In this document: positions 24,301-58,470 of the stretch, piece after piece | Numbering within the stretch: the stretch's first letter is position 1 | How the letters are laid out: each line of letters opens with the position of its first letter | From: a bacterium | GTDB lineage: Bacteria > Patescibacteriota > Patescibacteriia > UBA9570 | Assembly (NCBI GenBank): GCA_030698395.1 | Contig: JAUYKW010000018.1 | Location: forward strand, 44,726-108,725 | DNA: 64,000 nt | Reading direction: 5' to 3' | The notes under the pieces: model-generated | What the model was told of the DNA's origin: nothing | Databases searched by the model: none | What the model saw: the letters and a program-made list of their open reading frames with translations, nothing else | Made by a program: the position numbers and the translations under genes

Positions 24301-24996
24301 TTATTTTTTCGCGATAGTGATGATGTTTCTACCTAACTTTTGATCAGTTTTTTCGTTATTTGTAGAGTAGAAGTTGTCAGCATTTTTCCATGATGCATCA
24401 TCTAGCAGTTCATTTAGTTCAGGAATTGTGAAACCATGATAATAACGTTCTGCTAACACTTCTCCTTGTTCGTTTTTCCAAGGAACGATTGCATCACCAT
24501 TTTCGAATTCATTTGGAACATTCGTAAAGTAGTCAGGTAATGCTGGTTGATATAAATTCCAGTTCATCATAAATAAAGAACCTCCCGGTTTAGTAACTCG
24601 GGACATTTCCTGTAAAGCTTGAAGACGATATTTTTTCGATGGAATGTGCTGTAAGCTTGCAATCGCGATAGTGACATTGAACTCCTCATTGGCAAAAGGA
24701 AGTTCCAGCATGGATCCTTGAACTAGTTTAATATCAGGGTATAATTTCTTACCTTCCGTGATTAGTTTTTTTGAGACATCAAGGCCAGTATAGTAACCCT
24801 TGATTTTTTCTATAATTTCCGCTAGTCTGCCATTGCCACAACCAACGTCCAATACTTGATCTTCCGGTTTTACTAACTTATGAAGTAGTTGAAATTCCGG
24901 CCAATCATGTTGACGAGTTTGAGAAAAGTGTGGCGCAATTAAATTATAATCACTTTCAACTTTTTTTATCAATTTTTGAGCAAATGAATCAAGCAT
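24301..24996 (-). CDS. Class I SAM-dependent methyltransferase
   Basis: Motif I is VLDVGCGNGR and the motif post I is acidic. The length is 231 aa. Its substrate is not inferable. Confidence 0.75.
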   Translation of the reverse strand: MLDSFAQKLIKKVESDYNLIAPHFSQTRQHDWPEFQLLHKLVKPEDQVLDVGCGNGRLAEIIEKIKGYYTGLDVSKKLITEGKKLYPDIKLVQGSMLELPFANEEFNVTIAIASLQHIPSKKYRLQALQEMSRVTKPGGSLFMMNWNLYQPALPDYFTNVPNEFENGDAIVPWKNEQGEVLAERYYHGFTIPELNELLDDASWKNADNFYSTNNEKTDQKLGRNIITIAKK

Positions 24997-37582: not shown

Positions 37583-37831
37583 TCACCTTTTCTTAATAAC
37601 GAGCATCATAATACCAGCTATCATCGATAAAGCAATACTAAACCATGTAAATGCCCATGCAGCAAAAGCTCTTTGGTGAGCTAAAATTTGATCTTCATAA
37701 TATGGATCTCCTAATAGAGTGGTATCTTGCAAGGTGGCTAAATAGATAATATAAATAGCAGTTAGCGCAATTAGTGCAGTGATTACCCACATAATAGATG
37801 AAAAAATCTTATTTTTAAGGTTTGAGGTCAT
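37583..37831 (-). CDS. Small two-TM membrane protein, hypothetical
   Basis: It is 82 aa with two hydrophobic helices. It overlaps the start of the upstream GT-C-like gene by 17 bp and is co-oriented with it. Confidence 0.4.
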   Translation of the reverse strand: MTSNLKNKIFSSIMWVITALIALTAIYIIYLATLQDTTLLGDPYYEDQILAHQRAFAAWAFTWFSIALSMIAGIMMLVIKKR

Positions 37832-39383
37832 AAATAACGTATGATGTATTTTCGTAAATAACAGGATAATATTCTGATTTGTTTGTACTCCAGATACTTT
37901 TATAAACCGGTGAATCTTTACTAATAATGAAGTAACTAATACCTAGCTCAGCAATATTGGATGTATTTCTTTCGTTTTTTGGTTTAGCAATAATAGTATA
38001 CATTGCATGAAGTCTTTGATAAGTTGGGTTTTCTGGTTGATTGATAATTTCGGAAAATGGAGAAGATGGATTAAGAACATTAAATTTTTGTATATCACGA
38101 TGATTTAAACTGTACCATGGGTAATAAATAGTATGGCCAGAGTACCATAATGGAGCATGGAGAATTTCTTGATTAGTTGCGCTTTGGACACCTAATAACC
38201 TGCCAGTATGATTCGTATCATCTAGCCATTCAAGCGCTTCAGCAAAACCATCATGTGGTCGATAGCGGAAAGACCACCCTTCGATATCATCTTTCATAAA
38301 CACTACGGCATGAGTTGCTTGTGCACCTACAATTAAAACTGCAAACAAGACAAATACAATAGGTGTAAATTTTAAATACTTTCGTAATTCTACTAAGCCG
38401 AAACTTGCAAAAATAGCCAGACTTATCCAAGCAAAAGGAATGAATCTGTTAGGTAGGATGCCAATTCCAAACAATGGTAGGTGGCCTAGAATTATAGGTA
38501 CTAGCAACATGATTAGAAGTAACCATTTTATTTGTTTAGTTATTTTTGATAAACCAAAAACTAAACCAACTCCTGCTAGCATTGTAATTAAGTATCCCCA
38601 AATTGCTGGATGATCCCAAATTGGATGATAAAAACCAGGCAGACTATTATTTATGAAGTAGCCGATCATACCTTTGATAGACACAGGAAATATAGCTAAT
38701 GTAAAATCAAGCACTAAAACAATAATTCCAGTAGTAATTAGACCAATTTTTATTTTCCATGATTTTATATAAAAAAGAACAAACCATGAGGAAAATACAA
38801 TTGCCGCAATGCCGAAAGATAAATCATGAACGAGAGCTAGTAGGCTAAATGGTGACAAAGCAAAAGCGATCCATCGATGTTGCTGTTTAGTGATGGCCAA
38901 AATAGCAAAAATAATACAAAAAATAATTAGCATATAACCAAATAGATTTTGCGGAGTCAAAACTAATGACCTTATTAGAGCAGGAGACAAAGCAGAAAAT
39001 AATCCAGCAAATAGAGCAATGGTTGGAGATTTACTTAATAACCAGCCTATTAACCAAACTCCTACAACGCATGCCAAAAAAGCTAGACCACCTGTTAATA
39101 ATAATAGATGATGACTTTGGATGGGCAATATTTTTAATAATCCTGCATGGATGATTTGTAGAACAGGATAGGTAGATGGTCGCCAACACATTTCATAACT
39201 ATTTCCGGTTAATGAATAAGTACTGAACTCACCGGTTTCGGCTAATACTTTGGCTCCGCAGGCTAATCCACTAGCATCTGGCGTGATGGCAAAATCATTC
39301 CAATATAGTGATATGAAAACTAAAAATATAGCCACTATTGCTACAATACTTAAGCTGAGGGTGATTTTTAATTTTTTATTCAT
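37815..39383 (-). CDS. Polytopic membrane protein, putative GT-C-fold glycosyltransferase (PMT/ArnT/YfhO-like architecture)
   Basis: It is 522 aa with about 12 TM helices. The first extracytoplasmic loop carries acidic residues (TPDASGLACGAKVLAETGEF). The C-terminal soluble domain is about 150 aa. It sits divergent from a polyprenyl-P GT2 plus DUF2304 pair. Confidence 0.45.
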   Translation of the reverse strand: MNKKLKITLSLSIVAIVAIFLVFISLYWNDFAITPDASGLACGAKVLAETGEFSTYSLTGNSYEMCWRPSTYPVLQIIHAGLLKILPIQSHHLLLLTGGLAFLACVVGVWLIGWLLSKSPTIALFAGLFSALSPALIRSLVLTPQNLFGYMLIIFCIIFAILAITKQQHRWIAFALSPFSLLALVHDLSFGIAAIVFSSWFVLFYIKSWKIKIGLITTGIIVLVLDFTLAIFPVSIKGMIGYFINNSLPGFYHPIWDHPAIWGYLITMLAGVGLVFGLSKITKQIKWLLLIMLLVPIILGHLPLFGIGILPNRFIPFAWISLAIFASFGLVELRKYLKFTPIVFVLFAVLIVGAQATHAVVFMKDDIEGWSFRYRPHDGFAEALEWLDDTNHTGRLLGVQSATNQEILHAPLWYSGHTIYYPWYSLNHRDIQKFNVLNPSSPFSEIINQPENPTYQRLHAMYTIIAKPKNERNTSNIAELGISYFIISKDSPVYKSIWSTNKSEYYPVIYENTSYVIYDLKP

Positions 39384-40660: not shown

Positions 40661-41710
40661 ATGAAAAAAGCATTACTAATTGGAATCACAGGACAAGACG
40701 GATCTTACTTAGCAGAACTATTATTAGACAAAGGCTATGAAGTTCATGGTACAATGCGGAGATCTAGCCAATTTAATACTGGACGAATTGATCACTTGTA
40801 TAAGGATCCACATTTAAATGGAGTAAGACTTTTTTTACATTATAGTGATTTAACTGATGGAAGTAATTTAGCTAGATTAATTAGAGAAATTAAACCAGAC
40901 GAAATTTATAATTTAGGTGCTCAAAGTCATGTGCGGGTTAGTTTTGATATTCCGGAATATACAGCTATGGTGACTGGATTAGGAACGCTTAAAATTTTAG
41001 ATGCGATTCGCGATGTAAAAAAGGATACAAAGTTTTATCAAGCATCAAGTTCAGAGATGTTTGGTTTAGTACAGGAAGTACCACAAAAAGAAGATACGCC
41101 TTTTTATCCAAGATCACCATATGCAGTGGCTAAAGTTTATTCATACTGGATTACTAGAAATTACCGGGAAGGATATGATCTTTTTGCTAGTAATGGTATT
41201 TTGTTTAATCATGAATCACCCCGACGTGGAGAAACATTCGTAACTAGAAAGATAACCAGAGCTTTATCTAAGATAAAATTGGGCATCGATAAAAAATTGT
41301 ATTTGGGCAACATGGATGCAAAACGTGATTGGGGATATGCTCCTGATTATGTTGAAGCTATGTGGATGATGATGCAACAAGATAAACCAGATGATTATGT
41401 AATAGCAACTGGGGAAACTCATTCAGTGCGAGAGTTTGTAGAAGTTGCTGCAAAATGTTTGGATATTGATGTTATTTGGGAGGGTAAGGGAGTTGATGAG
41501 AAAGGCTATAATAAAAAAACGGGAGAGGAAATTGTTAATATAGATCCTAAATATTTTCGACCAACTGAGGTTGATTTATTAATTGGTGATTATTCCAAAG
41601 CTAAGAAAGATTTAGGTTGGGAACCGAAAGTTACTTTTAAAGAGCTAACTCAAATCATGATAGATGCGGATTACGATTATTATGTACGCGAGAAAGGACA
41701 TATAAAATAG
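40661..41710 (+). CDS. gmd: GDP-mannose 4,6-dehydratase
   Basis: Motifs: [29 protein letters not shown]; [19 protein letters not shown] (catalytic YxxxK); [10 protein letters not shown]. Length 349 aa. Confidence 0.9.
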
Positions 41711-41711
41711 T

Positions 41712-42641
41712 ATGGATAAAAATGATAAAATATATATTGCTGGACACCGAGGATTAGTTGGTAGTGCGATAGTACGAAAGTTGGAAGCAGAGGGTTTTAC
41801 TAACATTATTAAGCGTACTAGAAAAGAATTAGATTTAGTAAATCAAGCAGCCGTTACAGAATTTTTTGCTACTGAAAAACCAGATTATGTATTTTTAGCT
41901 GCAGCTAAAGTAGGTGGCATTAATGCTAACGATATTTATCCTGGTGATTTTATTTATCAGAATTTACAGATTCAGAATAACATTATTAGTAATGCTAAAG
42001 AAGTTGGAGTTAAGAAATTATTGTTTTTAGGCAGTAGCTGTATTTATCCTAAATTGTCTAAGCAGCCAATGAAAGAAGAGTATCTTTTAACAGGAACTTT
42101 AGAGCCAACAAATGAACCGTATGCTATAGCAAAGATTGCTGGTATAAAAATGTGTCAATCATACAATAAACAATATGGGACGAATTTTATCTCTGTGATG
42201 CCGACAAATTTATTTGGTTTTAATGATAACTTTGATTTAGAAAAATCACATGTACTACCAGCATTATTACGAAAAATTTATGAAGCAAAAAAAAATAATC
42301 AATCCACTGTTACGGTTTGGGGAACAGGAAAGCCACGTCGTGAATTTTTGTTTGTTGACGATTTAGCTGATGCAGTTTATTTTTTGATGCAGAACTATGA
42401 TGAGGATGAAATAGTAAATATTGGCACTGGTGAAGATATTATGATTTCAGAGTTAGCAGAATTGATTAAGAAGGTAATAGGTTTTGAAGGCGAAATTGTA
42501 TATGACGCAAGTAAACCTGATGGAACTCCGCGAAAATTATTAGATGTAAGTAAATTAAATGGACTTGGTTGGAAAGCAGATACTTCGCTTGAGGACGGTA
42601 TTAGAAAAACTTTTGAATGGTTTCAGGCTAACTTGCCTTAA
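41712..42641 (+). CDS. fcl: GDP-L-fucose synthase (GDP-4-keto-6-deoxy-D-mannose 3,5-epimerase/4-reductase)
   Basis: The N-terminus [19 protein letters not shown] is typical of this family. Further motifs are catalytic YAIAKIAG and [23 protein letters not shown]. It is immediately downstream of gmd. Confidence 0.9.
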
Positions 42642-43414: not shown

Positions 43415-44578
43415 ATGAAAATTCTTCAGGTTATTCCATATTTTGTGCCGGCCTTTAGTTATGGCGGTCCTATCCAGACATGTTTAGTTATATCTCAGCA
43501 CATGGTTAATAATGGCCATGAGGTAACTGTTGCTACAACAGATACTCTTGATGGTAAAGAGAGAATATATTTTCTAAATGAGGATATCGATGGAATTAGA
43601 GTTGTGAGGTTTCGGAATGTAAGTAATTCAATTGCAAAAAAAACTAATTTATTTTTGCCGATAGGTTTTAGAAAATGGTGTAAAGATAATATAAAACAAT
43701 TTGATATTATTCATTGTCATGATTTTTTTACGTACCAAAATATTGTAGTTAGGTACTATGCAAAGAAATATCACATTCCTTTCATAATTCAACCACATGG
43801 ATCTTTAGAGGATGTGCGATTACAGGCTAGGTTTGGTTTTATAAAAAGATTTTTTATTCGAAAAGTTCTTTTTTTATTATTAGAAGCTAAATATGTTATT
43901 GCTCTAACTAAAGCAGAACAACTGACAATAAATAAGATTGATTCAAATGCAAATGTTTCAATTGTACCAAATGGCATTAATTTGGATCAGTATTATGATG
44001 TTCAAGAAATTAATTTGCATGCGAAATATAATTTACCTGCAGATACAAAGTTAATTTGTTTCTTAGGAAGAGTACAATACATCAAGGGATTAGATCATTC
44101 CTTATTAACACTTAAGCATCTAGTTGGTAAGGTGGCATTTCATTTTTTTATTATCGGACCCAACGAAGGTGATGAACAACAACGATTAGAGAATATAATT
44201 AAAGAAGATAATTTAGAAAAATTTGTTACTTTTGTAGGATTATTATCTGGAATGGAAAAGAAGCAATTTATTAAATCATGTGATTCATTTTTAATGTTAT
44301 CACGCAGTGAAGGATTGCCAATATCTATTTTAGAAGCTGCGGCCGTTGGTTTACCGACTATGATTTCATATGAGTGTCATGTTCCAGAATTAGCAGTTTT
44401 AAATGCTGGGTACGAAGTTGATAAGATTGATTATGTTAATAATGCAAAAATACTCAAGAATTTTTTTGATTCTTCTGATATTTCAGATAACATGCGGATG
44501 CAAGCAAGGGCAGTAGTTGCGGATAAATTTTCCGTCCCAAAGATGGTAACCAAAATAAAGTCTTTATATCAGGATTAG
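43415..44578 (+). CDS. GT4 (group 1) glycosyltransferase
   Basis: The N-terminus KILQVIPYFVPAFSYGGP is typical of GT4. The C-terminal half has the EGLPISILEAAAVGLP (E-x7-E) motif. Confidence 0.8.
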   Translation: MKILQVIPYFVPAFSYGGPIQTCLVISQHMVNNGHEVTVATTDTLDGKERIYFLNEDIDGIRVVRFRNVSNSIAKKTNLFLPIGFRKWCKDNIKQFDIIHCHDFFTYQNIVVRYYAKKYHIPFIIQPHGSLEDVRLQARFGFIKRFFIRKVLFLLLEAKYVIALTKAEQLTINKIDSNANVSIVPNGINLDQYYDVQEINLHAKYNLPADTKLICFLGRVQYIKGLDHSLLTLKHLVGKVAFHFFIIGPNEGDEQQRLENIIKEDNLEKFVTFVGLLSGMEKKQFIKSCDSFLMLSRSEGLPISILEAAAVGLPTMISYECHVPELAVLNAGYEVDKIDYVNNAKILKNFFDSSDISDNMRMQARAVVADKFSVPKMVTKIKSLYQD

Positions 44579-46554
44579 CTATCTGGCGTATTTATTTTTT
44601 TGGTACCGTATATTGTACGGTATTTTTTGTGATTGAATTTGTAGAGCATCCATTGTGTTCGGTTGCCAATTCTCTGTTCATCTACTTTGGTAAATGCTAA
44701 AGGGTATTTATCTAATACCTTGTAAAATTCTTGGAGATCTTTTTGATTATTACTATTATTTAGGATCCAGTAATAATTAATTCCATTTTTACGTAACTTA
44801 TTTGTGAGTAGTTCATTTGGTTTGATGGTGAAATATCTTTGTTGGTAATTTGTGTCGAATGTTCTAATAAGGGCTACAGCGTGATTATTACGAATTTGTA
44901 TATCTGAGGAATAGTATTGAGTTTCATAGAAATGAGCATTACTAGCTATTAAACCATTATTAGATGCATTTTTTAATGAGTCTGTAGCGGTAGGTGCGCC
45001 ATAATCATATCCGTAAGTTGCTAAGGACAACTTGTTATTAAAATAAAAAGGAGCCATTTTTAAACAGAGTAAGGTAATTATTATTAATCCGAGGATGGGG
45101 TATTTCTGTTTGAGTTTTATCTTTGGGAATAATATGACTCCTATTAAGAGAATCACAAAAAGTGCAATAAAAATTATCGGTTTATAAGTTAATAGAGTTG
45201 CAAGAAATGAGGCATTTGCTAGTGCACTACCATATACAAGATCTTTGATATCAAACCAATACAAAATTACAAAAAATATAAATACTGATGAAAATATAAT
45301 TGATTGTCGTTTGGAGAATTTTGTTAGTATTTGGCGAGCGGCGAGAAATGTAAAGTAAATAATACAAACTAATATTGGCAATGTAACTCGGAAACCAATA
45401 ATGCTTTCAGCCTCATGATAATTCAGATAAACGAATACGAGGAGTAATGTCATCATTACAATGTCTGGTCGTATTTTACTATAATGTTTTTTAAAATTGT
45501 TAAATATTCGCTTTGCACTTATCCAAATCCCTAGAGATGTTAAAGGTAAAATAAAAATATTTAAATCTTGCTCGGAAAAATTATAAGAATAAATCAACCA
45601 AAGTTTTTGAAAGAAGTTAGCAGGTGCGCGTTGAATTTGAGATTCAACTAATCCTGTTGGAATTTCTCTTGAGTATTCCGCAATAGCAATTTTAGATTGG
45701 CTTAATTCACTTATTAGTGGAGTATCAGATGGGCTAAGAGAAAGAATTTGATCCAGCACAGAAAAAATAAGTTTGTTGATGAAAATGTATATATCACCAA
45801 ATACAAAACGAAGAAGATTTTCATATAAGCGGGGATATGGCAACATGTTAAAATCTAGTAATAGTATCGTTGCAATAAAAGTAGGGAAGGCAATTATTAA
45901 AGATTCTTTTATGATATATAATATTTTATATGATATTTCTTTATTTATTTTCCAAGAGTCTAGTATAGTAATTGTAAAAATCATTGGAGCAGCCAGCAAC
46001 AAATAGTAATCTTTTATCAACATTAGCAACAATAGGCCAAGACCAATTTGATATGCTTTGGCTTTTTTTGCCAGTAAGTAGACTAGGAAAGTAAATGCAA
46101 AAGTTGCTGGAATGTCTAGCATTAAACGAACCGAGAATATCCAAAAACCTGGAATTAGTAATAAGATAAAAAGAAACCACTTGCGTCTTTCCTTTTTAAT
46201 GTCTAAATGATTAGTAAGTAAATAAAGGGATATTATAAATCCAGCAGCGAAGATAAAAATTGGAATTCTATATTCAGTTAGAGTCTGAGGATTTGTGATT
46301 AGATTGTATAAAAATGCTACAAACGCCACTAAAAATGTATGCTCTGTATTAATGTTATACCAGGAAATTTCTCCATTAAATGCACCTTTGAAAGCGTTAA
46401 CAATGTTTGCATAGATATACTCATCAGGTGTGGGCCATATCCAGTTATTTAAAAGGGCAAGAAATATTAAGGAAAATAATAAAAAAAATATCAAGGTAGA
46501 ATGTTGTTTGAGGAATTTTACTAGTTGTTGTATTATCTTCATTTTATATCTCAC
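44575..46554 (-). CDS. GT-C-fold membrane glycosyltransferase (PMT/ArnT, GT39/GT83-like)
   Basis: It is 659 aa with about 12 TM helices. The first loop carries WPTPDEYIYANIV, matching the DE-x-Y catalytic motif of PMT/ArnT-type polyprenyl-phosphate-sugar-dependent transferases. The C-terminal soluble domain is about 160 aa. Confidence 0.6.
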   Translation of the reverse strand: MRYKMKIIQQLVKFLKQHSTLIFFLLFSLIFLALLNNWIWPTPDEYIYANIVNAFKGAFNGEISWYNINTEHTFLVAFVAFLYNLITNPQTLTEYRIPIFIFAAGFIISLYLLTNHLDIKKERRKWFLFILLLIPGFWIFSVRLMLDIPATFAFTFLVYLLAKKAKAYQIGLGLLLLMLIKDYYLLLAAPMIFTITILDSWKINKEISYKILYIIKESLIIAFPTFIATILLLDFNMLPYPRLYENLLRFVFGDIYIFINKLIFSVLDQILSLSPSDTPLISELSQSKIAIAEYSREIPTGLVESQIQRAPANFFQKLWLIYSYNFSEQDLNIFILPLTSLGIWISAKRIFNNFKKHYSKIRPDIVMMTLLLVFVYLNYHEAESIIGFRVTLPILVCIIYFTFLAARQILTKFSKRQSIIFSSVFIFFVILYWFDIKDLVYGSALANASFLATLLTYKPIIFIALFVILLIGVILFPKIKLKQKYPILGLIIITLLCLKMAPFYFNNKLSLATYGYDYGAPTATDSLKNASNNGLIASNAHFYETQYYSSDIQIRNNHAVALIRTFDTNYQQRYFTIKPNELLTNKLRKNGINYYWILNNSNNQKDLQEFYKVLDKYPLAFTKVDEQRIGNRTQWMLYKFNHKKYRTIYGTKKINTPDS

Positions 46555-48721: not shown

Positions 48722-49573
48722 TTGTCACACAGCTATATTTTCAGTATAATATCGACAACTTTATATAACTCCAAATTCAACTGCATGAGCCTCATTTCGC
48801 ATCTAGCAACAGTTGCAAAGCCAAGTAATGTTTTGGAAAGCATTAAGAGTATCAAGTTATCGTCCCAATATTCGATTAAGGGGGACTATAAACGGATATA
48901 TCTATATCATATTCGAAAAACTGGTGGAACAAGCTTAAACCACATGTTTTTATCTCTAGGTGGTAGAGATGGCAGAGATGTTTATCGAGAGATGATGCAA
49001 AAGCCTAATCATCGAATAATTAGTAGCAATAAGGTATTTGCTGGTTTTAACCACAGTATAATTAAAAGGGGTAATTATTATTATGCTTTTTCTCATGAGC
49101 CAATGCATGAAGTTGTGATTCCTGATAAAACCTTTACTGTTACTTGTGTACGAGATCCCTTAGAAAGAGTTGTGTCTCATTATAAAATGTTGATTGAAAT
49201 GAAACAGGATAATGCAAAACATCCGGGAATGCAAAAACAAAGTAAATGGCTAGGAAATAGTTTTGAAGATTTTTTAAAGAATATTCCAAAAAAGTTTTTA
49301 TTAAATCAGTTATACATGTTTTCAAAGGAATATAGTATAGACGAAGCTACTACTAATATTGTATCTTGTTCACATTTTTTCTTCACAGAAAATTTTTCGC
49401 AAGGTGTTGCTGGGTTATCCGATAAGTTAGGAATTCAACTGCAAGCTCTTCATACTCGTAAGACCCCAAGTAGCATTATGGTTACAGAAAAAGAGCAAGA
49501 TCAGCTACGAGAAATGTTGGAACCTGAATATATTTTATATAAAAAATTATCACAAATAAAAGAATCAGCTTAA
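48722..49573 (+). CDS. Sulfotransferase (carbohydrate-sulfotransferase-like, Sulfotransfer_2-type)
   Basis: A 5'-phosphosulfate-binding loop is present (YLYHIRKTGGTSLNHMF). A 3'-phosphate-binding motif is present (TCVRDPLERVVSHYKML, RDPxxRxxS). The true start may be an internal Met. Confidence 0.6.
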   Translation: MSHSYIFSIISTTLYNSKFNCMSLISHLATVAKPSNVLESIKSIKLSSQYSIKGDYKRIYLYHIRKTGGTSLNHMFLSLGGRDGRDVYREMMQKPNHRIISSNKVFAGFNHSIIKRGNYYYAFSHEPMHEVVIPDKTFTVTCVRDPLERVVSHYKMLIEMKQDNAKHPGMQKQSKWLGNSFEDFLKNIPKKFLLNQLYMFSKEYSIDEATTNIVSCSHFFFTENFSQGVAGLSDKLGIQLQALHTRKTPSSIMVTEKEQDQLREMLEPEYILYKKLSQIKESA

Positions 49574-51582: not shown

Positions 51583-52479
51583 TTATTGACCTGCCTTATA
51601 TATAGCGTATCGATCAGCTAACCAATTTTGGGGAGATTGTTTTTTTGGTTGGAGTTTAGCTAGCTCGGATAAGATAGATTCAATATTATATCCAAGGAGG
51701 GATAATTTTTCTGAGTCTAATGAACGTAGATATTTTTTTGCGTACTGTATACGTAAATTTGTATTGAATGTAGTTTTCCATTTTTCTAATGACTTATTCT
51801 GTACCTGTTTTTCTTTAGCTATATAGGGATCTCCCATGGTGCCATGAAGTTTTTCTTTTTGAATATTTTGGATCATATTTGAATTGAATGGTATTTCTAG
51901 ATAGTTACAAATCTTCTCTGTAACTTCGCTTGATTTTTCTACTAACTCTTCATATTTAATTAATATACTTTTTTCTTTCAGCAATTCATATCCATCACTC
52001 AGGAGATGTGGACCTTCATACAGATCTGTATTTGAAGGTTTTACATTTAATTTACCAAAGTTCCATGTTTCAATCACTGAAGCTAATGTTGCCAAAGGAT
52101 TTCTGCCTAAAAAAATAAATTTTGCCTCAGGAAATAATTTTGCTATTTCTGGAATAATAAAATAGTAACGAGGAGTTTTATCAAGAAAATATTTTTCATT
52201 GTCACAAGCTGAACTATATATGTCAGTGACAAATTCTTTTAATGACTTATCATAAGAAAACATTTTTTTTGGAAGTTCTGAAAAAAAATCTTGTAGCGCT
52301 TGACGACAAACTTCCTTATCGTAATCTACTGTTAGATCATTTTGTTTTTTTGGATATAGGAGTGGTAACAATATCCATGGTTCAGATACAGAACAAATTT
52401 CTGGATGAGACATTAATATTTTCTGCAGTAAAGTTGAACCAGAACGAGGTGTGGAAAAGAGGAAGATTAAATTATCCAT
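51583..52479 (-). CDS. Sulfotransferase (Sulfotransfer_3-type, PAPS-dependent)
   Basis: Motifs: 5'-PSB loop FLFSTPRSGSTLLQKIL; 3'-PB region FIFLGRNPLATLASV. Length 298 aa. Confidence 0.7.
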   Translation of the reverse strand: MDNLIFLFSTPRSGSTLLQKILMSHPEICSVSEPWILLPLLYPKKQNDLTVDYDKEVCRQALQDFFSELPKKMFSYDKSLKEFVTDIYSSACDNEKYFLDKTPRYYFIIPEIAKLFPEAKFIFLGRNPLATLASVIETWNFGKLNVKPSNTDLYEGPHLLSDGYELLKEKSILIKYEELVEKSSEVTEKICNYLEIPFNSNMIQNIQKEKLHGTMGDPYIAKEKQVQNKSLEKWKTTFNTNLRIQYAKKYLRSLDSEKLSLLGYNIESILSELAKLQPKKQSPQNWLADRYAIYKAGQ

Positions 52480-53491
52480 TTTTTCTAATTAATTTGCTAT
52501 AAGCTAGAGCTAACATATCTTGAAGTTGAGTTTTTTTACAAGAAATTATTCTTCGACGTAAATCATTTGGTATTACTTGCTGAATATCATCTTGCTCATT
52601 TAATTCTTGTATTTCAGCAACATAATCTTTATTTTTTTCGTAGAGTATATCAGCGTATTCTGTTCTATCAGATAGCTTTGGATTATTATGTTCCTCAGGC
52701 CACTTTAAAAGTTGTTCTTGCAATTTAAAATAAAGTTTAACTTTTTCACTAGTTCGTAAACCATTAGTCCCAATTGGATGCCATGGGTGTGCCGTGTATG
52801 TGTCTGTAAGTACAGCTCCTTTGCTGTTAGCGGCCATTTCCAATCTGATACTGACATCTTCTCCAATTTTGGATAGAGAAGTACTCCAAAGAGGATTAGT
52901 GTCATATCCTTCTATTATATCCCAATACTTTCTTGCCGCGGATATCATTGGTCCAAAATTTCGGCGGGGTGGAAATAATTCAGGTTGTCTATATTTTGTT
53001 GGGCAAGTTGCTAGCACAGATGCTAGATCGTTGTTAGCATTTTGCCATTCCTTAAAGGATGCCCCAGCTGGGTATTGAGCCATTCTACGAAACGCATTAA
53101 ATACTTTGTACTTTCCTTGTTGATGATGCTTTGTTAGCACAGTTAGAAAGTCTTTAGGTAGAAGTTGATCTCCATCCATTACTGAAATTATATCGCCTTG
53201 AGATGCCGCTATGCCAGCATTATTACATTTTGATAAGTGATAAGCTTCAGTATTAACATTCTCGTCCAAATAAATTATCTTGATATTCATTTGGTCTTTA
53301 ACTTCTTTATGGCGATCGAACAGCGATTTTAATCCCTTTTTGTGATTATACTTATCGGCAAATTCACGGCTTCTTTGTTCAACATAAATAAGTTCAAAAT
53401 TATTCCTAGGGAAATCTTGATTTAGTAGACCATTAATTAGATGAAAAAAATTACGATAACTCGAGTCCCAACTAATGATAGAGTGTAACAT
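52472..53491 (-). CDS. GT-A-fold glycosyltransferase-like protein (GT2-related)
   Basis: It has ISVMDGDQLLP (DxD-like) after a Rossmann-like N-terminus. Length 339 aa. No close named family was recognised. Confidence 0.5.
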   Translation of the reverse strand: MLHSIISWDSSYRNFFHLINGLLNQDFPRNNFELIYVEQRSREFADKYNHKKGLKSLFDRHKEVKDQMNIKIIYLDENVNTEAYHLSKCNNAGIAASQGDIISVMDGDQLLPKDFLTVLTKHHQQGKYKVFNAFRRMAQYPAGASFKEWQNANNDLASVLATCPTKYRQPELFPPRRNFGPMISAARKYWDIIEGYDTNPLWSTSLSKIGEDVSIRLEMAANSKGAVLTDTYTAHPWHPIGTNGLRTSEKVKLYFKLQEQLLKWPEEHNNPKLSDRTEYADILYEKNKDYVAEIQELNEQDDIQQVIPNDLRRRIISCKKTQLQDMLALAYSKLIRKNG

Positions 53492-53495
53492 ATAG

Positions 53496-54467
53496 TTATT
53501 TTATATCAGTCAACCAAGCTCTTACAAGTTTGATTTCGTCGTTGGATACAAATCCATTTTTATGAAGAGCAGTGTAAACAATTTCTAAGTTTTTCAATAA
53601 ATCTTTACCTAGTTTTATATTTTGAAGTAATTCAATGATTGGTTTAGTGTTTTGATATACTTCAACTTCATCAGCAAAATCTTTCATTAAGTTGTGAGCA
53701 TTTCTTTCTTGGTAAACAGTTGCCTCAGTAAAACCTAAATGCATGCCATGTAGCCACATAATATGTTGTGCCAGATAACCTCTTAGAATATCAGTAAATC
53801 TAAAACTAACAGTTGCGGGGAGATATAATAATGGAAATGCTTTTTTTTGCCAGAAAGTATTTTGCGAATTAAACGGACAGTAACACTTTTTTGGTAAATG
53901 AATACTTTTTTTTCGATCGAATTTGGTAGTGTCGTTAAAGACTAAGCGATAAATGGCATCAACATCTGGATCTGTATCAGCTAAACCTTGCCATGCTCCA
54001 ATACTAGTTAATTTAGAATGTTGTTTTAACTTGCTCTTATTTTTTGTTTGAATGAGGTCTAACGGGTATCCTCGTGGCCAAATTAATTTCTTTGAAAAGT
54101 AATTGTATACATTATAATATTTGTCTTTTGTCTCTATACTTCTTTTGCTAGTAAAATCTGGACACTTCCAATGTTTGTATGGCAGATTGTCGTCATCTGT
54201 ATCATAGATAATATCTGCTCCTTGACGCATTGCATAAATATACCCGATGTTTTTTCTAGTATAGTGGTTATAAGGACTGTAGCGAACAAATTCGTAGCCT
54301 AGTTTTTTTTGATCTTGAACTGAAAGGAAGGTTAAGTTTTTTGAACTTTTAATTTGTGGAGTTTTTTTATCTCCAACAAGAACAACGTGCCAATCTGGAA
54401 TTTTTTCAAAAGCTTTTACCGCTTTAGTTCTGTCGTTAATGCTAGTTATGACTATGAATTTTTTCAT
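53496..54467 (-). CDS. GT75/RGP-like (DUF288/STELLO-like) protein; possible nucleotide-sugar mutase or glycosyltransferase
   Basis: It has KFIVITSINDRT...WHVVLVGDKKTPQI...RKNIGYIYAMRQGADIIYDTDDDNLPY. This parallels the RGP/UDP-arabinopyranose-mutase pattern (IV.T.R......W......H.I.V.DGD....I...........R..GY........YI...DDDC.P). Confidence 0.45.
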   Translation of the reverse strand: MKKFIVITSINDRTKAVKAFEKIPDWHVVLVGDKKTPQIKSSKNLTFLSVQDQKKLGYEFVRYSPYNHYTRKNIGYIYAMRQGADIIYDTDDDNLPYKHWKCPDFTSKRSIETKDKYYNVYNYFSKKLIWPRGYPLDLIQTKNKSKLKQHSKLTSIGAWQGLADTDPDVDAIYRLVFNDTTKFDRKKSIHLPKKCYCPFNSQNTFWQKKAFPLLYLPATVSFRFTDILRGYLAQHIMWLHGMHLGFTEATVYQERNAHNLMKDFADEVEVYQNTKPIIELLQNIKLGKDLLKNLEIVYTALHKNGFVSNDEIKLVRAWLTDIK

Positions 54468-55675
54468 GATAGTTGCGTAATTTTATAATCAGTTGGAGGA
54501 CAAGATCCTAAGACATCTCTGCGCGACACAATAAAAGGATCAATTACACTAGTTGGTTGCATTTCAAAGAATAATAATTGTGGACGGTAAAAAATTCCTG
54601 TATCAAGCAGTCCCAGCCCTAAGCTAATGCTGTAATTTCCGGGTGGAAGATTTGTATCTTCAGCAGAAATTTCAAGTTTATGTTTTCCTTTAGGAATGGC
54701 ATCTATTTTTGCTGTAACTGTCATGATGCGTGCTAACTGACTGTTAAATATTTGGATACCAACTCTAATATTATTGAGTTCTTTATCGGTGTTATTAGTT
54801 ACTAGCAACTCTGTAATCAGAGGCTTGCTGTACTGCATTTGGGACAATCTAATTTGTTCAATAGTAAAGTTTTTGATTTTTGTATCAAACGGACCAGTTC
54901 CTGATTCTTGAGAATTTGTCAGGCGTAGATATTCTTGAACAGCTTTGTCTGTATCTGCGATCGTTACAATTTTTCCTTGATTCAGCACAACGCATGATTT
55001 ACATAAGCTTTGAATTGCTCCCATATTGTGGCTAACAAAAATGATAGTGCGACCATCTTCTTTTGTTACTTCATCCATTTTGCCAAGGCACTTTTTTTGA
55101 AACTGGGTATCACCAACAGCTAGTACTTCATCTACTAAAAGAATCTCTGGTTCTAGATGGGCAGCTACAGCAAATGCTAAACGCACGCGCATCCCACTAG
55201 AATATCTTTTTACTGGGGTGTCTAAGAATTTTTCTACTTCTGCGAATTCAACAATTTCATCAAACTTTTTTGAGATTTCTCTTTTTGTCATGCCCAATAC
55301 AGCTCCATTTAGAAATACATTTTCTCGGCCAGTTAATTCTGGATGAAATCCAGTGCCAACTTCCAATAAGCTAGCAACTCTGCCACGTAAAGTTATTTTA
55401 CCAGTGGTTGGTGATGTGATGCGGGACAATACTTTTAATAGGGTACTTTTACCAGCTCCGTTACTACCGATTAATCCTATTACTTCACCTTTCTCTATAG
55501 AAAAATTTATATCTTTAAGTGCCCAGAATGTTTCTCGATGGGATTCTTTGTTTGTGAACCATTTTTTTGGATTTAAAGATTTAGCAATTACATCACGTAA
55601 AGCTACATAGGGTTCCATTTCCCCTAGTTGATATTGTTTTGAAATATTTTCAGCTAGAATTACAGGTTTGGACAT
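54464..55675 (-). CDS. wzt: ABC exporter ATP-binding protein, Wzt/TagH type, with a C-terminal substrate-binding beta-domain
   Basis: Motifs: Walker A GSNGAGKST; signature SSGMRVRLAFAVA; Walker B LLVDEVLAVGD. An extra non-ATPase domain of about 150 aa follows, as in O-antigen Wzt proteins. Confidence 0.85.
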   Translation of the reverse strand: MSKPVILAENISKQYQLGEMEPYVALRDVIAKSLNPKKWFTNKESHRETFWALKDINFSIEKGEVIGLIGSNGAGKSTLLKVLSRITSPTTGKITLRGRVASLLEVGTGFHPELTGRENVFLNGAVLGMTKREISKKFDEIVEFAEVEKFLDTPVKRYSSGMRVRLAFAVAAHLEPEILLVDEVLAVGDTQFQKKCLGKMDEVTKEDGRTIIFVSHNMGAIQSLCKSCVVLNQGKIVTIADTDKAVQEYLRLTNSQESGTGPFDTKIKNFTIEQIRLSQMQYSKPLITELLVTNNTDKELNNIRVGIQIFNSQLARIMTVTAKIDAIPKGKHKLEISAEDTNLPPGNYSISLGLGLLDTGIFYRPQLLFFEMQPTSVIDPFIVSRRDVLGSCPPTDYKITQLS

Positions 55676-55679
55676 AATT

Positions 55680-56501
55680 TTATACTACATCTGCGAACTT
55701 TTGTTCGGTTTTACGGAAATAAAATAAGCCTACAATAAATAACAATATTGAAATACCTATAGACATGGCTAGACTTTCTAGATTAATTGGCGTATTTCCA
55801 ATAATGATGGCACGAGCGTTTTCAATTACACCAGACATTGGATTAAGATTTAGAATCCATTGGTATTTCTCGCCAGCAATTTTTGCGGGATAAATTACGG
55901 GTGTTAAAAAAAGTAGCATTTGAATAAAAAACGGAATAATATATCGGACATCACGATATTTTACATTTACTGCTGATAGAAATAATCCCATACCTAAACT
56001 AGTGAAGTAGGTAATGAGAATCAATATTGGAATAAGAAATAGACTAATTGGTTTAGGGACGAATTGATAATAAAACATCATGGCACAGAGGATGGAGCTG
56101 GCAATTAAGAAATCAATAAAAGCAACAATTACTGTTGATGATGGTAATATTAATCTTGGAAAATAGATTTTTTTGATCATCTCTTGATCAGATACTAAGC
56201 TACCGCTAGCACTTGATAGTGCTTGTGAGAAAAAGAGCCAGAAAACTAAACCAACATAAACAAATATTGGATATGGAGCACCGCTAGAATCTATTTGAGC
56301 TAGGTTTCCAAAAAAGACTGTAAAAATTACCATACTTATGATAGGTACAAAAAAAGCCCACAATATTCCAATGGCTGTTTGTTTGTATCTTACTTTTACA
56401 TCTCTAAGTGCAAGAAAGTAAAAGAGATCTTTATATTGGAGCATTTCCCGGAAGTCTATCCGTAGCCAGCTACGTTTTGGTAGGATAATTGTTTCTTTCA
56501 T
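55680..56501 (-). CDS. wzm: ABC-2 exporter permease, Wzm/TagG type
   Basis: It is 273 aa with six TM helices. The N-terminus (ETIILPKRSWLRIDFREMLQYKDLFYFLALRDVKVRYKQTAIGILWAF) is typical of polysaccharide ABC-2 permeases. It is immediately upstream of wzt. Confidence 0.85.
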   Translation of the reverse strand: MKETIILPKRSWLRIDFREMLQYKDLFYFLALRDVKVRYKQTAIGILWAFFVPIISMVIFTVFFGNLAQIDSSGAPYPIFVYVGLVFWLFFSQALSSASGSLVSDQEMIKKIYFPRLILPSSTVIVAFIDFLIASSILCAMMFYYQFVPKPISLFLIPILILITYFTSLGMGLFLSAVNVKYRDVRYIIPFFIQMLLFLTPVIYPAKIAGEKYQWILNLNPMSGVIENARAIIIGNTPINLESLAMSIGISILLFIVGLFYFRKTEQKFADVV

Positions 56502-56575: not shown

Positions 56576-57586
56576 CTATGCTTTTTCCAGAAATACAATA
56601 AAGCTCTCTCCTTTGCCGGCTTTATCGCGTATCCGCCATGCTGGAATGGTGAAGTAACTATTCAATAATGCTAGAACTCTCAAACTGAATTCTTTGAAAC
56701 TTAAGTATTTAATATATTCTAATGTATTCATGTTCTTAGGACGCGGTTGCCAGATGGTTTCTTTGTTTCCCAGTGATACTCGTTCTTTTTTATTGGTAAG
56801 ATATTGTAATGCAACCCAACCCATTGGAGTGGTAGTTTCGGATTTAAGAACTTTGAATCCAGTTTCTTTAGCCAGAACATTTATACTTTTTTGTGAAAAA
56901 AAATTTACGTGATATGGAATGTGCCAGTTAATCCATTTTTTTTCGGTTCGCTTTGCATTTGCACTTTCTATATTTGGTGTACTAAGAATTATTTTACCAC
57001 CAACCTTTAATTTTTTTGATATTTTGATTAAAAAATCTTTAGGATCAGGTATATGTTCTATTAACTGACTCATTGTGATGAAATCAAAGAAATCATCAGG
57101 GTAAGGCATTGTGTCTATGTCGCCAAAATGTATTTCTAAATTTAGTTCGTCTGCAATTGGTTTTATATTTTTATCTAGTTCTGTTCCGTATGCATCACCA
57201 CCAAGTTTAGTAATTTCTAAAAGAGATACTCCGTTTCCGCAACCTATATCCAAAACTTTGCTACCAGCAGTTATATAACTATGACATTTATTTTTTTCTC
57301 CTTGTAGATTGTTTTTGTCGCTATTTGGTTTTCTAGAGAAATTATCAGCAGTTGCTTTTACATCATCAGCAGTCATTGCTTTTCTGGGATAATAATCTGT
57401 ATAAATACTTTCTAATACTTCACTAGATGGAATTGGGTTAATTTCAGCAAAGTTACATGATGAACATTTATTCACTGAGTATTGTTCAGGGTATCCATAA
57501 CGATCATCATGCATTTCATTGTACAGGAGTGTCGTCGGAGATTTGCATATTTTGCAGTATAATACTGCATTTTCTTCACTTAGCAT
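56576..57586 (-). CDS. Class I SAM-dependent methyltransferase with an N-terminal Cys4 zinc-ribbon
   Basis: The N-terminus has CKICKS...CSSCNF. Motif I is VLDIGCGNGVSLLEI. Length 336 aa. It is co-oriented with wzm-wzt. Confidence 0.7.
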   Translation of the reverse strand: MLSEENAVLYCKICKSPTTLLYNEMHDDRYGYPEQYSVNKCSSCNFAEINPIPSSEVLESIYTDYYPRKAMTADDVKATADNFSRKPNSDKNNLQGEKNKCHSYITAGSKVLDIGCGNGVSLLEITKLGGDAYGTELDKNIKPIADELNLEIHFGDIDTMPYPDDFFDFITMSQLIEHIPDPKDFLIKISKKLKVGGKIILSTPNIESANAKRTEKKWINWHIPYHVNFFSQKSINVLAKETGFKVLKSETTTPMGWVALQYLTNKKERVSLGNKETIWQPRPKNMNTLEYIKYLSFKEFSLRVLALLNSYFTIPAWRIRDKAGKGESFIVFLEKA

Positions 57587-57816: not shown

Positions 57817-58470
57817 ATGATACAACACTATGAACTTATGTTCATTATACCTGGTTCTATTGATGCGGCTGCAGTTAAGCCCGTTCAGGAGCGAGTATTT
57901 GAACTAATCAAGCAAGCTAACGCTACTATGTCTAGTCAGTATGACATGGGACGGCGAAAATTAGCATACAAAATTAAACAGCAAACATATGGCCATTACT
58001 ATGTGTTGCAGTTTGATGCAGAAGCAGAAGTAATAAAAGATTTGGATACTAAATTACGACTCGATCACGAGATTTTGCGTTATATGTTAGTTAAGGGAAA
58101 GCCTTTGACTAATGAACAATTGAAAGCGATGATTGAGGAGCCAGAAAAGGAAGAAGTGGAACCGGCAGAGGAAATGAGCGACATATCAGGCGCACTCCCT
58201 GCGGAGCCACAGGTGCAAGTACAACCAGTTGTAAAATCTGCAACAGAGGTTAAGGTTGAAGCAGAGCCTGTTACAGAAGTAGCAGAGCCAGAAACTGTAA
58301 CAACTGAAGTTGTGGAAGAATCTATTGTTACAGAGGTTGCTGAACCAGAAGTAGCGGAATCAACTCCAACTCCAGAATCAGAGGTTATGAAATCAAAATT
58401 AACTATGGAAGAACTGGATAAAAAATTGGAAGATATTCTAGGTGATACTGATTTAGAATCACAATTATAA
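57817..58470 (+). CDS. rpsF: 30S ribosomal protein S6 with a long acidic C-terminal extension
   Basis: The N-terminus MIQHYELMFIIPGS...GRRKLAYKI is S6. The C-terminal roughly 110 aa are E/P/V/T-rich repeats (EVAEPE..., VTEVAEPE). Confidence 0.85.
   Translation: MIQHYELMFIIPGSIDAAAVKPVQERVFELIKQANATMSSQYDMGRRKLAYKIKQQTYGHYYVLQFDAEAEVIKDLDTKLRLDHEILRYMLVKGKPLTNEQLKAMIEEPEKEEVEPAEEMSDISGALPAEPQVQVQPVVKSATEVKVEAEPVTEVAEPETVTTEVVEESIVTEVAEPEVAESTPTPESEVMKSKLTMEELDKKLEDILGDTDLESQL

Follow-up and report, generated by a model that had tools for sequence, protein, structure and literature searches.

Our analysis of a 64,000-nucleotide stretch of a Patescibacteriota genome (hereafter the window) points to an enzyme of the GT75 fold, encoded within a surface-glycan export operon, that may interconvert the ring forms of a nucleotide sugar. 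That the protein combines this fold with an intact active site is nearly certain. The chances that its reaction is of the mutase type are about even, and so are those of our full reading, by which it would be a mutase that depends on metal and interconverts the pyranose and furanose forms of an NDP-sugar, perhaps GDP-L-fucose. GDP-L-fucose as the actual substrate, taken separately, is possible but on the unlikely side.

The predicted gene was found exactly at 53496..54467 on the minus strand. It starts with ATG and encodes a soluble protein of 323 aa and 38 kDa, and no competing ORF of at least 80 aa was found inside these bounds on either strand. It is a genuine gene and not a chance ORF, because a 100% identical protein is listed by NCBI ("STELLO glycosyltransferase family protein"), homologues run into thousands, an exhaustive search returned 4,707 cluster representatives, and the AlphaFold model has a mean pLDDT of 95.2. 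The model comprises one globular domain, and the protein has no transmembrane segment (maximal 19-residue hydropathy 1.12). All the motifs quoted in the original prediction are in place: IVITSIN at aa 5-11, W-HVVLVGD at aa 26-33, RKNIGY at aa 71-76 and DTDDDN-P at aa 89-96.

The original prediction had likened the protein both to plant reversibly glycosylated polypeptides (RGPs) and to STELLO-like DUF288 proteins. Profile searches bore out the second likeness, with a PF03385 (STELLO/DUF288) match of 54.2 bits against a cut-off of 27.8 bits, but not the first as a direct match, as PF03214 (RGP) gave none at E<=0.1; a fragment of MtdL, by contrast, scores 47.6 bits on PF03214. The PF03385 match spans aa 223-323, starting at the RFTD motif, and takes up only profile positions 1-103 of 387. 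The only sequence relative in the PDB is MtdL, a GT75 mutase (E 1.6e-19 with the single sequence and 6.6e-34 with the family profile, using HMMER). The similarity to GT75/DUF288 proteins is significant, and no unrelated GT-A family gave a better match. The model superposes on MtdL at 2.2 Å over 316 residues and shows the overall GT75 fold, with a GT-A Rossmann-like N-domain, the GT75-specific core and a C-terminal helical domain; the core, which buries the sugar in MtdL, is kept in its entirety. The kinship to GT75 is that of sister families, and the gene adds a member to a bacterial family already known and labelled STELLO/DUF288 by NCBI and Pfam. This family has more than 7,600 homologues at E<=1e-3 (best E 1e-136), and the cluster representatives amount to at least 4,700 family clusters at 50% identity. 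The top 120 homologues are at least 52% identical to our protein, while the GT2-like glycosyltransferase encoded next to it has 53 homologues in total. Being far larger and more conserved than the adjoining acceptor-specific glycosyltransferase, the family shows the pattern of a nucleotide-sugar-modifying enzyme. Members fused to GT2, sulfotransferase and O-FucT domains were found. No functional study of the bacterial family was found in the literature on DUF288/PF03385/STELLO in bacteria or on GT75 in bacterial polysaccharides.

Residue conservation was evaluated in 74 homologues from many phyla, with 39-58% identity (motif positions in Table 1). In MtdL, the D109-D111 DxD motif binds the metal, the ribose and the sugar. 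Arg159 is the self-glycosylated nucleophile of GT75 mutases, and Asp195 orients this arginine and is essential to mutase activity (PMC9937993). Arg257 contacts the beta-phosphate and the ring oxygen, and Asp260 is the proposed general base (PMC9937993). Arg289 and His292 belong to the diphosphate-binding loop A. Save for Asp87, each MtdL residue found essential by mutagenesis is matched by the same residue in our protein, with no variation among the 74 homologues (MtdL/our protein: D109/D91, R159/R132, D195/D168, Q229/Q202, R257/R223, D260/D226). The DxD and arginine residues, for which the original prediction had suggested a conservation check, proved invariant (D91-D93 and R132), as are W130, P131 and G133 around the arginine (74/74), and little or no variation was seen at D168, S201/Q202, R223, D226, R255 and H258. 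Altogether some 25 polar pocket-lining residues do not vary, as expected where an enzyme encloses a small substrate. Two sites depart from MtdL. Q253 stands at the position of the Mn ligand His287 (glutamine in 73/73 aligned homologues, histidine in one homologue, P0089), a residue kept in active RGPs and lost in the inactive AtRGP5 (PMC9937993). H68 and Y69 (72/74 and 74/74) take the places of Ser86, which governs base selectivity, and Asp87, which contacts sugar O4/O6 and whose replacement in D87N and D87S abolishes MtdL activity (PMC9937993). Thr8, present in 73/74 homologues, likely occupies the position of MtdL Thr13, which favours GDP and is replaced by Pro in RGPs (PMC9937993).

Table 1. 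Genes around the focal gene and active-site motifs of its protein (positions in the window).
Feature	Position	Strand	Remarks
gmd	40661..41710	+	TIGR01472, 577 bits (cut-off 415)
fcl, GDP-L-fucose synthase	41712..42641	+	NF047922, 511.7 bits (cut-off 500); candidate substrate supply
Sulfotransferase	51583..52479	-	Sulfotransfer_3, 108.6 bits; overlaps end of GT2-like gene; closes the run
Divergent GT2-like glycosyltransferase	52472..53491	-	Pfam, 31.9 bits; starts 4 nt past the focal stop
QERNAH, Q253-H258	53694..53711	-	R255, H258 align with MtdL Arg289, His292
RFTD, R223-D226	53790..53801	-	R223, D226 align with MtdL Arg257, Asp260
NSQNT, N200-T204	53856..53870	-	S201/Q202 align with MtdL Ser228/Gln229
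DPDVD, D166-D170	53958..53972	-	D168 aligns with MtdL Asp195
WPRGYP loop with Arg132	54063..54080	-	Aligns with MtdL Arg159, OsUAM1 Arg158
DDDN, D91-D92-D93-N94	54186..54197	-	Aligns with MtdL D109-D110-D111-N112; invariant in 74/74
H68-Y69	54261..54266	-	At MtdL Ser86, Asp87 positions
wzt, ABC-transporter ATPase with C-terminal extension	54464..55675	-	Pfam and NCBIfam
wzm, ABC-2 permease of glycan exporter	55680..56501	-	Pfam ABC2_membrane, 68 bits
SAM-dependent methyltransferase, N-terminal Cys-rich segment	56576..57586	-	Methyltransf_23, 87.9 bits; opens the minus-strand run

The gene lies, as predicted, between a GT-A-like gene and wzt. The glycan cluster of the window encodes Wzm, Wzt, GT2 and GT4 glycosyltransferases, methyltransferases and sulfotransferases, with wzm and wzt adjacent and co-oriented, and our gene is hosted by an ABC-transporter-dependent surface-glycan cluster. 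The stop of wzt overlaps the start of the focal gene by 4 nt (ATGA), and the C-terminal extension of Wzt (aa 260-403) matches Wzt_C weakly. Neither the window nor the 80 homologous loci encode a FAD-dependent UDP-galactopyranose mutase (UGM, Glf).

In nine other genome loci, from different phyla, wzt is found directly upstream of the homologue, and all nine Wzt proteins carry a C-terminal extension (total length 402-456 aa). Most homologues do not adjoin wzt, and some are encoded beside Wzx-type flippases or in Wzy/Wzc clusters. The C-terminal domain of the window's Wzt is conserved in only three of about 17 Wzt-bearing loci (L011 and L039 at about 40%, L002 at 26%) and is unrelated in the remaining wzt-adjacent loci, and co-variation of our gene with this domain, such as a chain terminator would show, was rejected as a general explanation. 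Sulfotransferases are encoded near the family in 10/80 loci. Gmd or Fcl-like genes were found in 14/80 homologous loci, compared with 2/80 for the rhamnose gene RmlA; among the full-length loci, 14/43 have at least one of the fucose markers Gmd, Fcl and GT11, and two thirds have none within 10 kb. In one locus, L085, the window's order methyltransferase-wzm-wzt-focal gene-GT2-like recurs within a single run, manC-gmd-fcl-MT-wzm-wzt-focal gene-GT2-like...GT11. In Azospirillum brasilense Sp7 the homologue (plasmid p5, AMK58_RS30180) is accompanied by gmd, fcl, manC and wzm/wzt, and another homologue carries a fused O-FucT domain. Homologues are also present in the culturable Sporomusa silvacetica DSM 10669 and Flagellimonas onchidii. 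The GT2-like gene is a frequent, not an obligate, downstream partner: it accompanies the family in L001, L008, L011, L083, L085 and L087 and occurs without it in L084, L086, L088 and L089, where L086 retains a wzm-wzt-GT2-like module. It was considered as an obligate partner and candidate furanosyltransferase and rejected, with four of seven sampled homologues having no focal gene nearby; since it occurs without our gene, no dedicated furanosyltransferase partner was identified. For the neighbour family c18, only the seven loci with true members were counted; a fused TylF-type methyltransferase domain had contaminated the iterative profile search.

By analogy with MtdL, the protein would be a cytoplasmic, divalent-cation-dependent enzyme whose nucleotide sugar is bound by D91-93 of the DDD motif together with Gln253, Arg223, Arg255 and His258. 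Asp226 would deprotonate Arg132, which would attack C1 of the sugar and displace the NDP; on the enzyme-bound adduct the ring would open and re-close through O4, and re-attack by the NDP would release an NDP-furanose. A glycosyltransferase of the same operon may then consume this product, and the polymer, made on the cytoplasmic face and methylated and/or sulfated, would be exported by Wzm/Wzt. The likeliest substrate would be a GDP-sugar, and the leading candidate is GDP-L-fucose produced by the enzymes of the cluster's gmd and fcl genes. UDP-Arap and UDP-Galp, with which the original prediction had proposed to assay the protein, are disfavoured by the context: the pathway encoded by the cluster, and by many of the homologous loci, is that to GDP-L-fucose; no genes for UDP-xylose or UDP-arabinose lie nearby; and the residues at the nucleotide-contacting positions differ from those of RGPs. 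The literature searched yielded no description of L-fucofuranose from bacterial surface polysaccharides.

The main rival to a mutase is a conventional inverting Leloir glycosyltransferase built on the GT75/STELLO scaffold, which would transfer the sugar of an NDP-sugar, possibly GDP-fucose, to the lipid-linked glycan or to a conserved primer such as Und-PP-GlcNAc, with Asp226 as the base for the external acceptor and Arg132 merely binding. We consider it a serious possibility, if one with somewhat less than an even chance. It would fit the match to the STELLO model and not to the RGP model, and the two departures from the proven mutases, Mn-ligand His to Gln253 and Asp87 to Tyr69, all of which count against a mutase. 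In plant STELLO, moreover, the DxD motifs are needed for complementation, while the arginine equivalent to the nucleophile is dispensable (R271A; PMC4906169). The nearby GDP-fucose genes would serve a fucosyltransferase equally well, which weakens their co-occurrence as an argument for a GDP-fucose mutase; the GT2, sulfotransferase and O-FucT fusions resemble multi-domain glycan assembly enzymes; and strong conservation could mirror a conserved acceptor. However, the nucleophile arginine and both its aspartate partners are invariant in the 74 homologues, and a glycosyltransferase that does not use them would have no reason to keep them. The retention of the entire sugar-burying GT75-specific core and the much stronger conservation of the family than of the adjoining glycosyltransferases likewise speak against transfer, and glycosylation of an external acceptor has been shown for no GT75-fold protein (PMC9937993).

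The overlap with wzt raises another alternative, a chain-terminating or cap-forming enzyme tied to the exporter, which would make or add a non-reducing-end residue read by the C-terminal domain of Wzt. Such a role is a special case of either the mutase or the glycosyltransferase; it would explain the translational coupling to wzt and agrees with the extended Wzt proteins of the nine wzt-adjacent loci and with the methyltransferase and sulfotransferase genes that flank the module. We find it improbable, as the Wzt domain is shared with only L011, L039 and L002, most homologues are located away from wzt, including those near Wzx-type flippases or Wzy/Wzc, and L086 has the export module without our gene. 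Less probable still is an accessory protein, non-catalytic or only self-glycosylating, that would act as a scaffold of a glycan assembly or export complex, like class-2 UAM/AtRGP5 or as proposed for STELLO in assembly. GT75 does include inactive members that act in complexes (OsUAM2, AtRGP5), STELLO has been called an assembly factor (PMC4906169), and the Mn-ligand histidine is absent here. Yet the inactive members have lost the DDD motif (having DDN instead), the Arg257 equivalent and the histidine, whereas the present family keeps DDD, Arg223 and the other catalytic residues invariant, and conservation of some 25 pocket residues is unexpected of a scaffold. We therefore rejected a non-catalytic protein on the grounds of the invariant active site.

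Furanose sugars, which mammals lack, are immunodominant in the surface glycans of bacteria. To our knowledge, the flavoenzyme UGM and its relatives are the only widely known bacterial route to furanose sugars, and we know of the metal-dependent GT75 route in bacteria only from two antibiotic pathways, those of MtdL and Hyg20. If the mutase chemistry is right, L-Fucf and other unusual furanoses would be far commoner in the surface glycans of environmental bacteria and candidate phyla than structural databases suggest, and thousands of "STELLO glycosyltransferase" annotations would be misnamed; in addition, the biochemistry of plant STELLO would gain a bacterial model that is soluble and tractable. 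Were it an ordinary glycosyltransferase, the finding would be routine. In its widest form, which we put forward tentatively and with rather less than even confidence, the proposal is that of a very large, taxonomically ubiquitous FAD-independent, metal- and Arg-dependent mutase family, in bacteria including CPR and in some archaea, that supplies unusual furanoses (for instance, L-fucofuranose made out of GDP-L-fucose) to surface glycans which are exported and frequently carry sulfate or methyl groups. Taken further, plant STELLO may owe its GT75-like half to a mutase-plus-transferase pair.

Among known systems, the closest are the bacterial GT75 GDP-L-galactose/GDP-L-fucose pyranose-furanose mutases, MtdL of Marinactinospora thermotolerans (PDB 7XPR/7XPU/7YUA) and Hyg20. 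Our protein has in common with MtdL the DDD-N motif, the nucleophile arginine and the equivalents of Asp195, Ser228/Gln229, Arg257, Asp260, Arg289 and His292; like MtdL it is soluble, cytoplasmic and associated with GDP-L-fucose supply, and it probably has a threonine at the guanine-contacting position. It differs in being about 50 residues shorter, in giving no PF03214 match, and in the replacement of His287 by Gln253, Asp87 by Tyr69, Ser86 by His68 and Asn42 probably by Lys35. While MtdL and Hyg20 are encoded in antibiotic gene clusters, our family is found in surface-glycan export operons of many phyla. FAD-dependent UGM (Glf) and its relatives, Fcf2 and the C. jejuni heptose mutases, catalyse the type of reaction proposed here and occur in the same kind of cluster, but their fold and cofactor are unrelated and they show no similarity to our protein in sequence or structure. 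The plant RGP/UAM proteins of GT75 (OsUAM1, AtRGP1-3, and OsUAM2, structure 8CID) share with it the DDD motif, the R-G-(Y/F)-P self-glycosylation loop and the third DxD, at an identity of just 13-14% and without its matching the RGP profile PF03214. Where RGPs have Pro, Asp and Asp, which favour UDP, our protein has Thr, Lys and His, and genes for UDP-xylose or UDP-arabinose are missing from its vicinity. Arabidopsis STELLO1/2 (PF03385, formerly DUF288) are Golgi-lumenal GT75-related proteins needed for assembly of the cellulose synthase complex. They share with our protein the PF03385 match and the GT75-homology region with its DxD motifs and DVD motif, but are about 770 aa long, with a cytosolic N-terminal region, a single transmembrane anchor, a lumenal catalytic domain and a second domain, whereas ours is a soluble single domain of 323 aa; in some bacteria, STELLO profile positions ~190-340, from the second half of the model, are weakly matched by the product of a separate adjacent gene.

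The focal gene starts with ATG and encodes a protein of 323 aa, and no competing ORF of at least 80 aa was found against it on either strand. The motifs quoted in the original prediction, which had read it as an RGP/STELLO-like protein, are all present (IVITSIN at aa 5-11, W-HVVLVGD at 26-33, RKNIGY at 71-76 and DTDDDN-P at 89-96). With a mass of 38 kDa, a pI of 9.5 and a maximum 19-residue hydropathy of 1.12, the protein is predicted to be soluble. In a word-indexed search more than 7,600 homologues reached E≤1e-3, the top 120 being 52-62% identical. An exhaustive HMM search covered 1.84 billion cluster representatives, of which 4,707 matched at E≤1e-3 and 1,538 of these also at E≤1e-30. This is a real gene from a very large family. 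Family-level annotation already exists, as the identical NCBI protein, encoded on a 112,874-bp contig, is named "MAG: STELLO glycosyltransferase family protein [bacterium]".

The sole Pfam match of the protein is to STELLO (PF03385, formerly DUF288; 54.2 bits, cut-off 27.8), while the RGP model (PF03214) did not match at E≤0.1 and NCBIfam gave no match; of the two profile similarities anticipated, the one to DUF288 was found, over profile positions 1-103 of 387, and the one to RGP was not. Plant STELLO proteins consist of a GT75-homologous region followed by DUF288 (PMC4906169), which explains why the match does not start before the last third of the protein (aa 223-323). Among all PDB sequences only the MtdL chains, which were deposited under the name "Transglycosylse", are related to it, with E 1.6e-19 for the single sequence (aa 64-302) and E 6.6e-34 for a 34-sequence family profile. 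[quoted passage not shown] Unlike the focal protein, the MtdL fragment matches PF03214 (47.6 bits) and not PF03385. An AlphaFold2 model built from the family alignment (mean pLDDT 95.2, pTM 0.93) was compared with the PDB by Foldseek, where MtdL reached TM 0.83-0.85 (E about 1e-26) and rice UAM2 (8CID) TM 0.70 (E 1e-13), against at most 0.42 for generic GT-A proteins (TarP and others). By these scores the protein has the complete GT75 architecture, and with it the core domain and the C-terminal helical domain, which according to the MtdL authors are found in GT75 alone (PMC9937993). The RGP/STELLO-like reading is thus supported by the Pfam match and by similarity to MtdL in both sequence and fold, with no unrelated GT-A family scoring higher.

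Active sites were compared using HMMER alignments together with a MAFFT alignment in which MtdL was set beside 74 species-level homologues (39-58% identity). The DxD motif and the arginine singled out in the original prediction are in place: D91-D92-D93-N94 and R132 (in WPRGYP) align with MtdL D109-D110-D111-N112 and R159, the nucleophile/autoglycosylation site, and are kept in 74/74 homologues, as is D168 (MtdL D195). MtdL S228 and Q229 correspond to S201 (S or T in all) and Q202 (Q in 73/73), and R257, D260 (the proposed general base), R289 and H292 to the conserved R223, D226, R255 and H258. [quoted passage not shown] We regard it as established that the focal protein is a GT75-fold enzyme whose nucleotide-sugar pocket is intact and strongly constrained. 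Three positions differ from MtdL: the Mn ligand His287 is Gln253 (Gln in 73/73 homologues; a single sequence of the first alignment carries His), Asp87 is Tyr69 (74/74) and Ser86 is His68 (His in 72/74). According to the alignments, these differences are specific to the focal family and invariant within it.

The focal ATG overlaps the stop codon of wzt (ATGA), the downstream gene begins 4 nt past the focal stop, and there is no terminator-like site on the minus strand within the run of six genes. Co-transcription of the focal gene, a member of a bacterial family annotated STELLO/DUF288, with a glycan exporter is likewise established. From about 30 to 57 kb the window contains a glycan cluster which, besides several GT2 and GT4 genes, encodes an FkbM methyltransferase, another sulfotransferase and large membrane proteins that lack annotation. 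Since gmd and fcl also belong to it, at a distance of about 11 kb from the focal gene, the cluster makes GDP-L-fucose. The presence of two sulfotransferases, which belong to different Pfam families, suggests a sulfated surface glycan; in L086, a locus with a related module, ATP sulfurylase and APS kinase are present. Among the remaining genes, the 659-aa protein looks membrane-type, being rich in hydrophobic stretches by eye, and gave a weak match, far below cut-off, to the NCBIfam 'AZOBR_p60025 family cell surface glycopolymer formation protein' (26 bits). In the syntenic locus L083, ribosomal S6, SSB and S18 genes directly follow the matching glycan module, suggesting a close relative of the window's organism.

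Features of the window discussed in the text
Feature	Coordinates	Strand	Remarks
methyltransferase	56576-57586	-	gene 1 of run
wzm	55680-56501	-	gene 2 of run
wzt	54464-55675	-	gene 3 of run; with C-terminal extension
focal gene	53496-54467	-	gene 4 of run
divergent GT2-like gene	52472-53491	-	gene 5 of run
sulfotransferase	51583-52479	-	gene 6 of run; Sulfotransfer_3
sulfotransferase	48722-49573	+	Sulfotransfer_2
gmd	40661-41710	+	TIGR01472, 577 bits
fcl, GDP-L-fucose synthase	41712-42641	+	NF047922, 511.7 bits, cut-off 500
large protein	44575-46554	-	659 aa; no Pfam match
large protein	37815-39383	-	522 aa; no Pfam match
large protein	28962-30827	+	621 aa; no Pfam match
ribosomal protein S6-like (by eye)	57817-58470	+	217 aa; N-terminus MIQHYELMFII...; long acidic repeat-like C-terminal extension
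Elp3-like (bacterial) in appearance	24930-26534	+	534 aa; Radical_SAM, Radical_SAM_C, GNAT, weak ELP3_N

Scanning one genome per GTDB species gave a homologue in at least 576 species, and 80 loci with flanks of up to 10 kb per side were kept for ORF calling and clustering. They span Chloroflexota, Nitrospirota, Planctomycetota, Cyanobacteria, Patescibacteria, Desulfobacterota, Bacteroidota, Firmicutes, Proteobacteria, Verrucomicrobiota and archaea. As in the window, wzt lies directly upstream in nine loci (L002, L006, L008, L011, L023, L028, L029, L036 and L039), and wzm/wzt occur within 10 kb in about 20 of the 80; other loci have Wzx-type flippases and, in Sphingomonas, a Wzc/Wza system. Sulfotransferases, present in the window, recur in 10/80. 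Gmd was found in 10 loci and an Fcl-like protein in 12 (14 for their union), GT11 fucosyltransferases in seven, and any fucose marker in 19/80, or 14/43 among loci with full flanks. RmlA was confined to two loci and RmlB to one; since L-Rha is commoner than L-Fuc in E. coli O antigens (PMC7685785), the bias is the reverse of this baseline. In L085 a single co-oriented run reads manC-gmd-fcl-methyltransferase-wzm-wzt-focal gene-GT2-like-...-GT11. The focal-family domain is fused to GT2 in three homologous proteins (P0181, P0216, P0241), to a sulfotransferase in P0263 and to O-FucT (PF10250) in P0253, and it occurs twice in P0121 and three times in P0218. A family of ~240-330-aa proteins adjoins the focal homologue in seven loci (L005, L035, L049, L052, L056, L060, L079); in L060 one copy carries a fused methyltransferase domain. 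Of eight members tested, five match STELLO Pfam positions about 190-340 weakly (E 2e-6 to 2e-3, sub-threshold), and some bacteria thus seem to encode the halves of the plant STELLO domain in two separate, adjacent genes; the window has no such neighbour.

The Wzt C-terminal domain is conserved with that of the window only in L011 and L039 (about 40%) and L002 (26%); the focal gene, then, is not bound to a single Wzt recognition specificity. For the GT2-like neighbour, just 53 homologues could be detected. Among seven sampled, the focal gene is directly upstream in three (L083, L085, L087) and not in four (L084, L086, L088, L089), L086 being wzm-wzt-GT2-like without it, and we rejected the GT2-like gene as an obligate partner. 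In L089 the GT2-like homologue, P0317, lies near phage capsid and prohead-protease genes and may be a prophage or phage-borne glycan-modification gene.

We favour a GT75-type mutase, at about an even chance, because invariance falls on precisely the residues with which MtdL performs its arginine-mediated ring contraction, because the GT75-specific sugar-enclosing domains are kept, and because the family is conserved as nucleotide-sugar enzymes are, unlike the acceptor-specific glycosyltransferases alongside. The clusters, moreover, have no alternative mutase: FAD-dependent UGM is absent from the window and all 80 loci (query sequence validated against 1I8T). Counting against a mutase are the replaced metal-ligand histidine and Asp87, the match to the STELLO rather than the RGP model, the dispensability of the arginine in plant STELLO (PMC4906169), and the lack of an identified furanosyltransferase partner, the GT2-like neighbour not being obligate in the seven sampled loci. 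A further point against it is that a fucosyltransferase would account just as well for the association with fucose genes. A conventional transferase is a serious but somewhat doubtful alternative. We consider a capping role coupled to Wzt, or one without catalysis, unlikely.

The interest of the family lies in its size and spread together with its intact mutase machinery, and metal-dependent furanose formation may be widespread in bacterial surface glycans. Azospirillum brasilense Sp7, culturable and genetically tractable, offers a practical system for testing homologue function: its homologue (L081, plasmid p5, 74109-75128 of the record; 41% identical) lies in a glycan cluster whose other genes include two of gmd type, fcl, manC and wzm/wzt as well as those for a GH99-like protein and a GT61. 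GDP-L-fucose is the leading candidate substrate of the focal enzyme, because it is accepted by the two bacterial GT75 enzymes that have been characterised and because no other sugar pathway is represented as often among the neighbouring genes. The N-terminal nucleotide-base contacts of MtdL could not be aligned with the focal family by sequence and were mapped from the strands of the model (β1 at 3-9, β2 at 26-32), where T13, I15, D40 and N42 of MtdL probably correspond to T8, I10, D33 and K35. The three specificity positions are Pro, Asp and Asp in RGPs and Thr, Asn and Ser in the GDP-specific MtdL (PMC9937993); the focal family, with Thr, Lys and His, is unlike the UDP-type RGP pattern and would be compatible with a guanine nucleotide.
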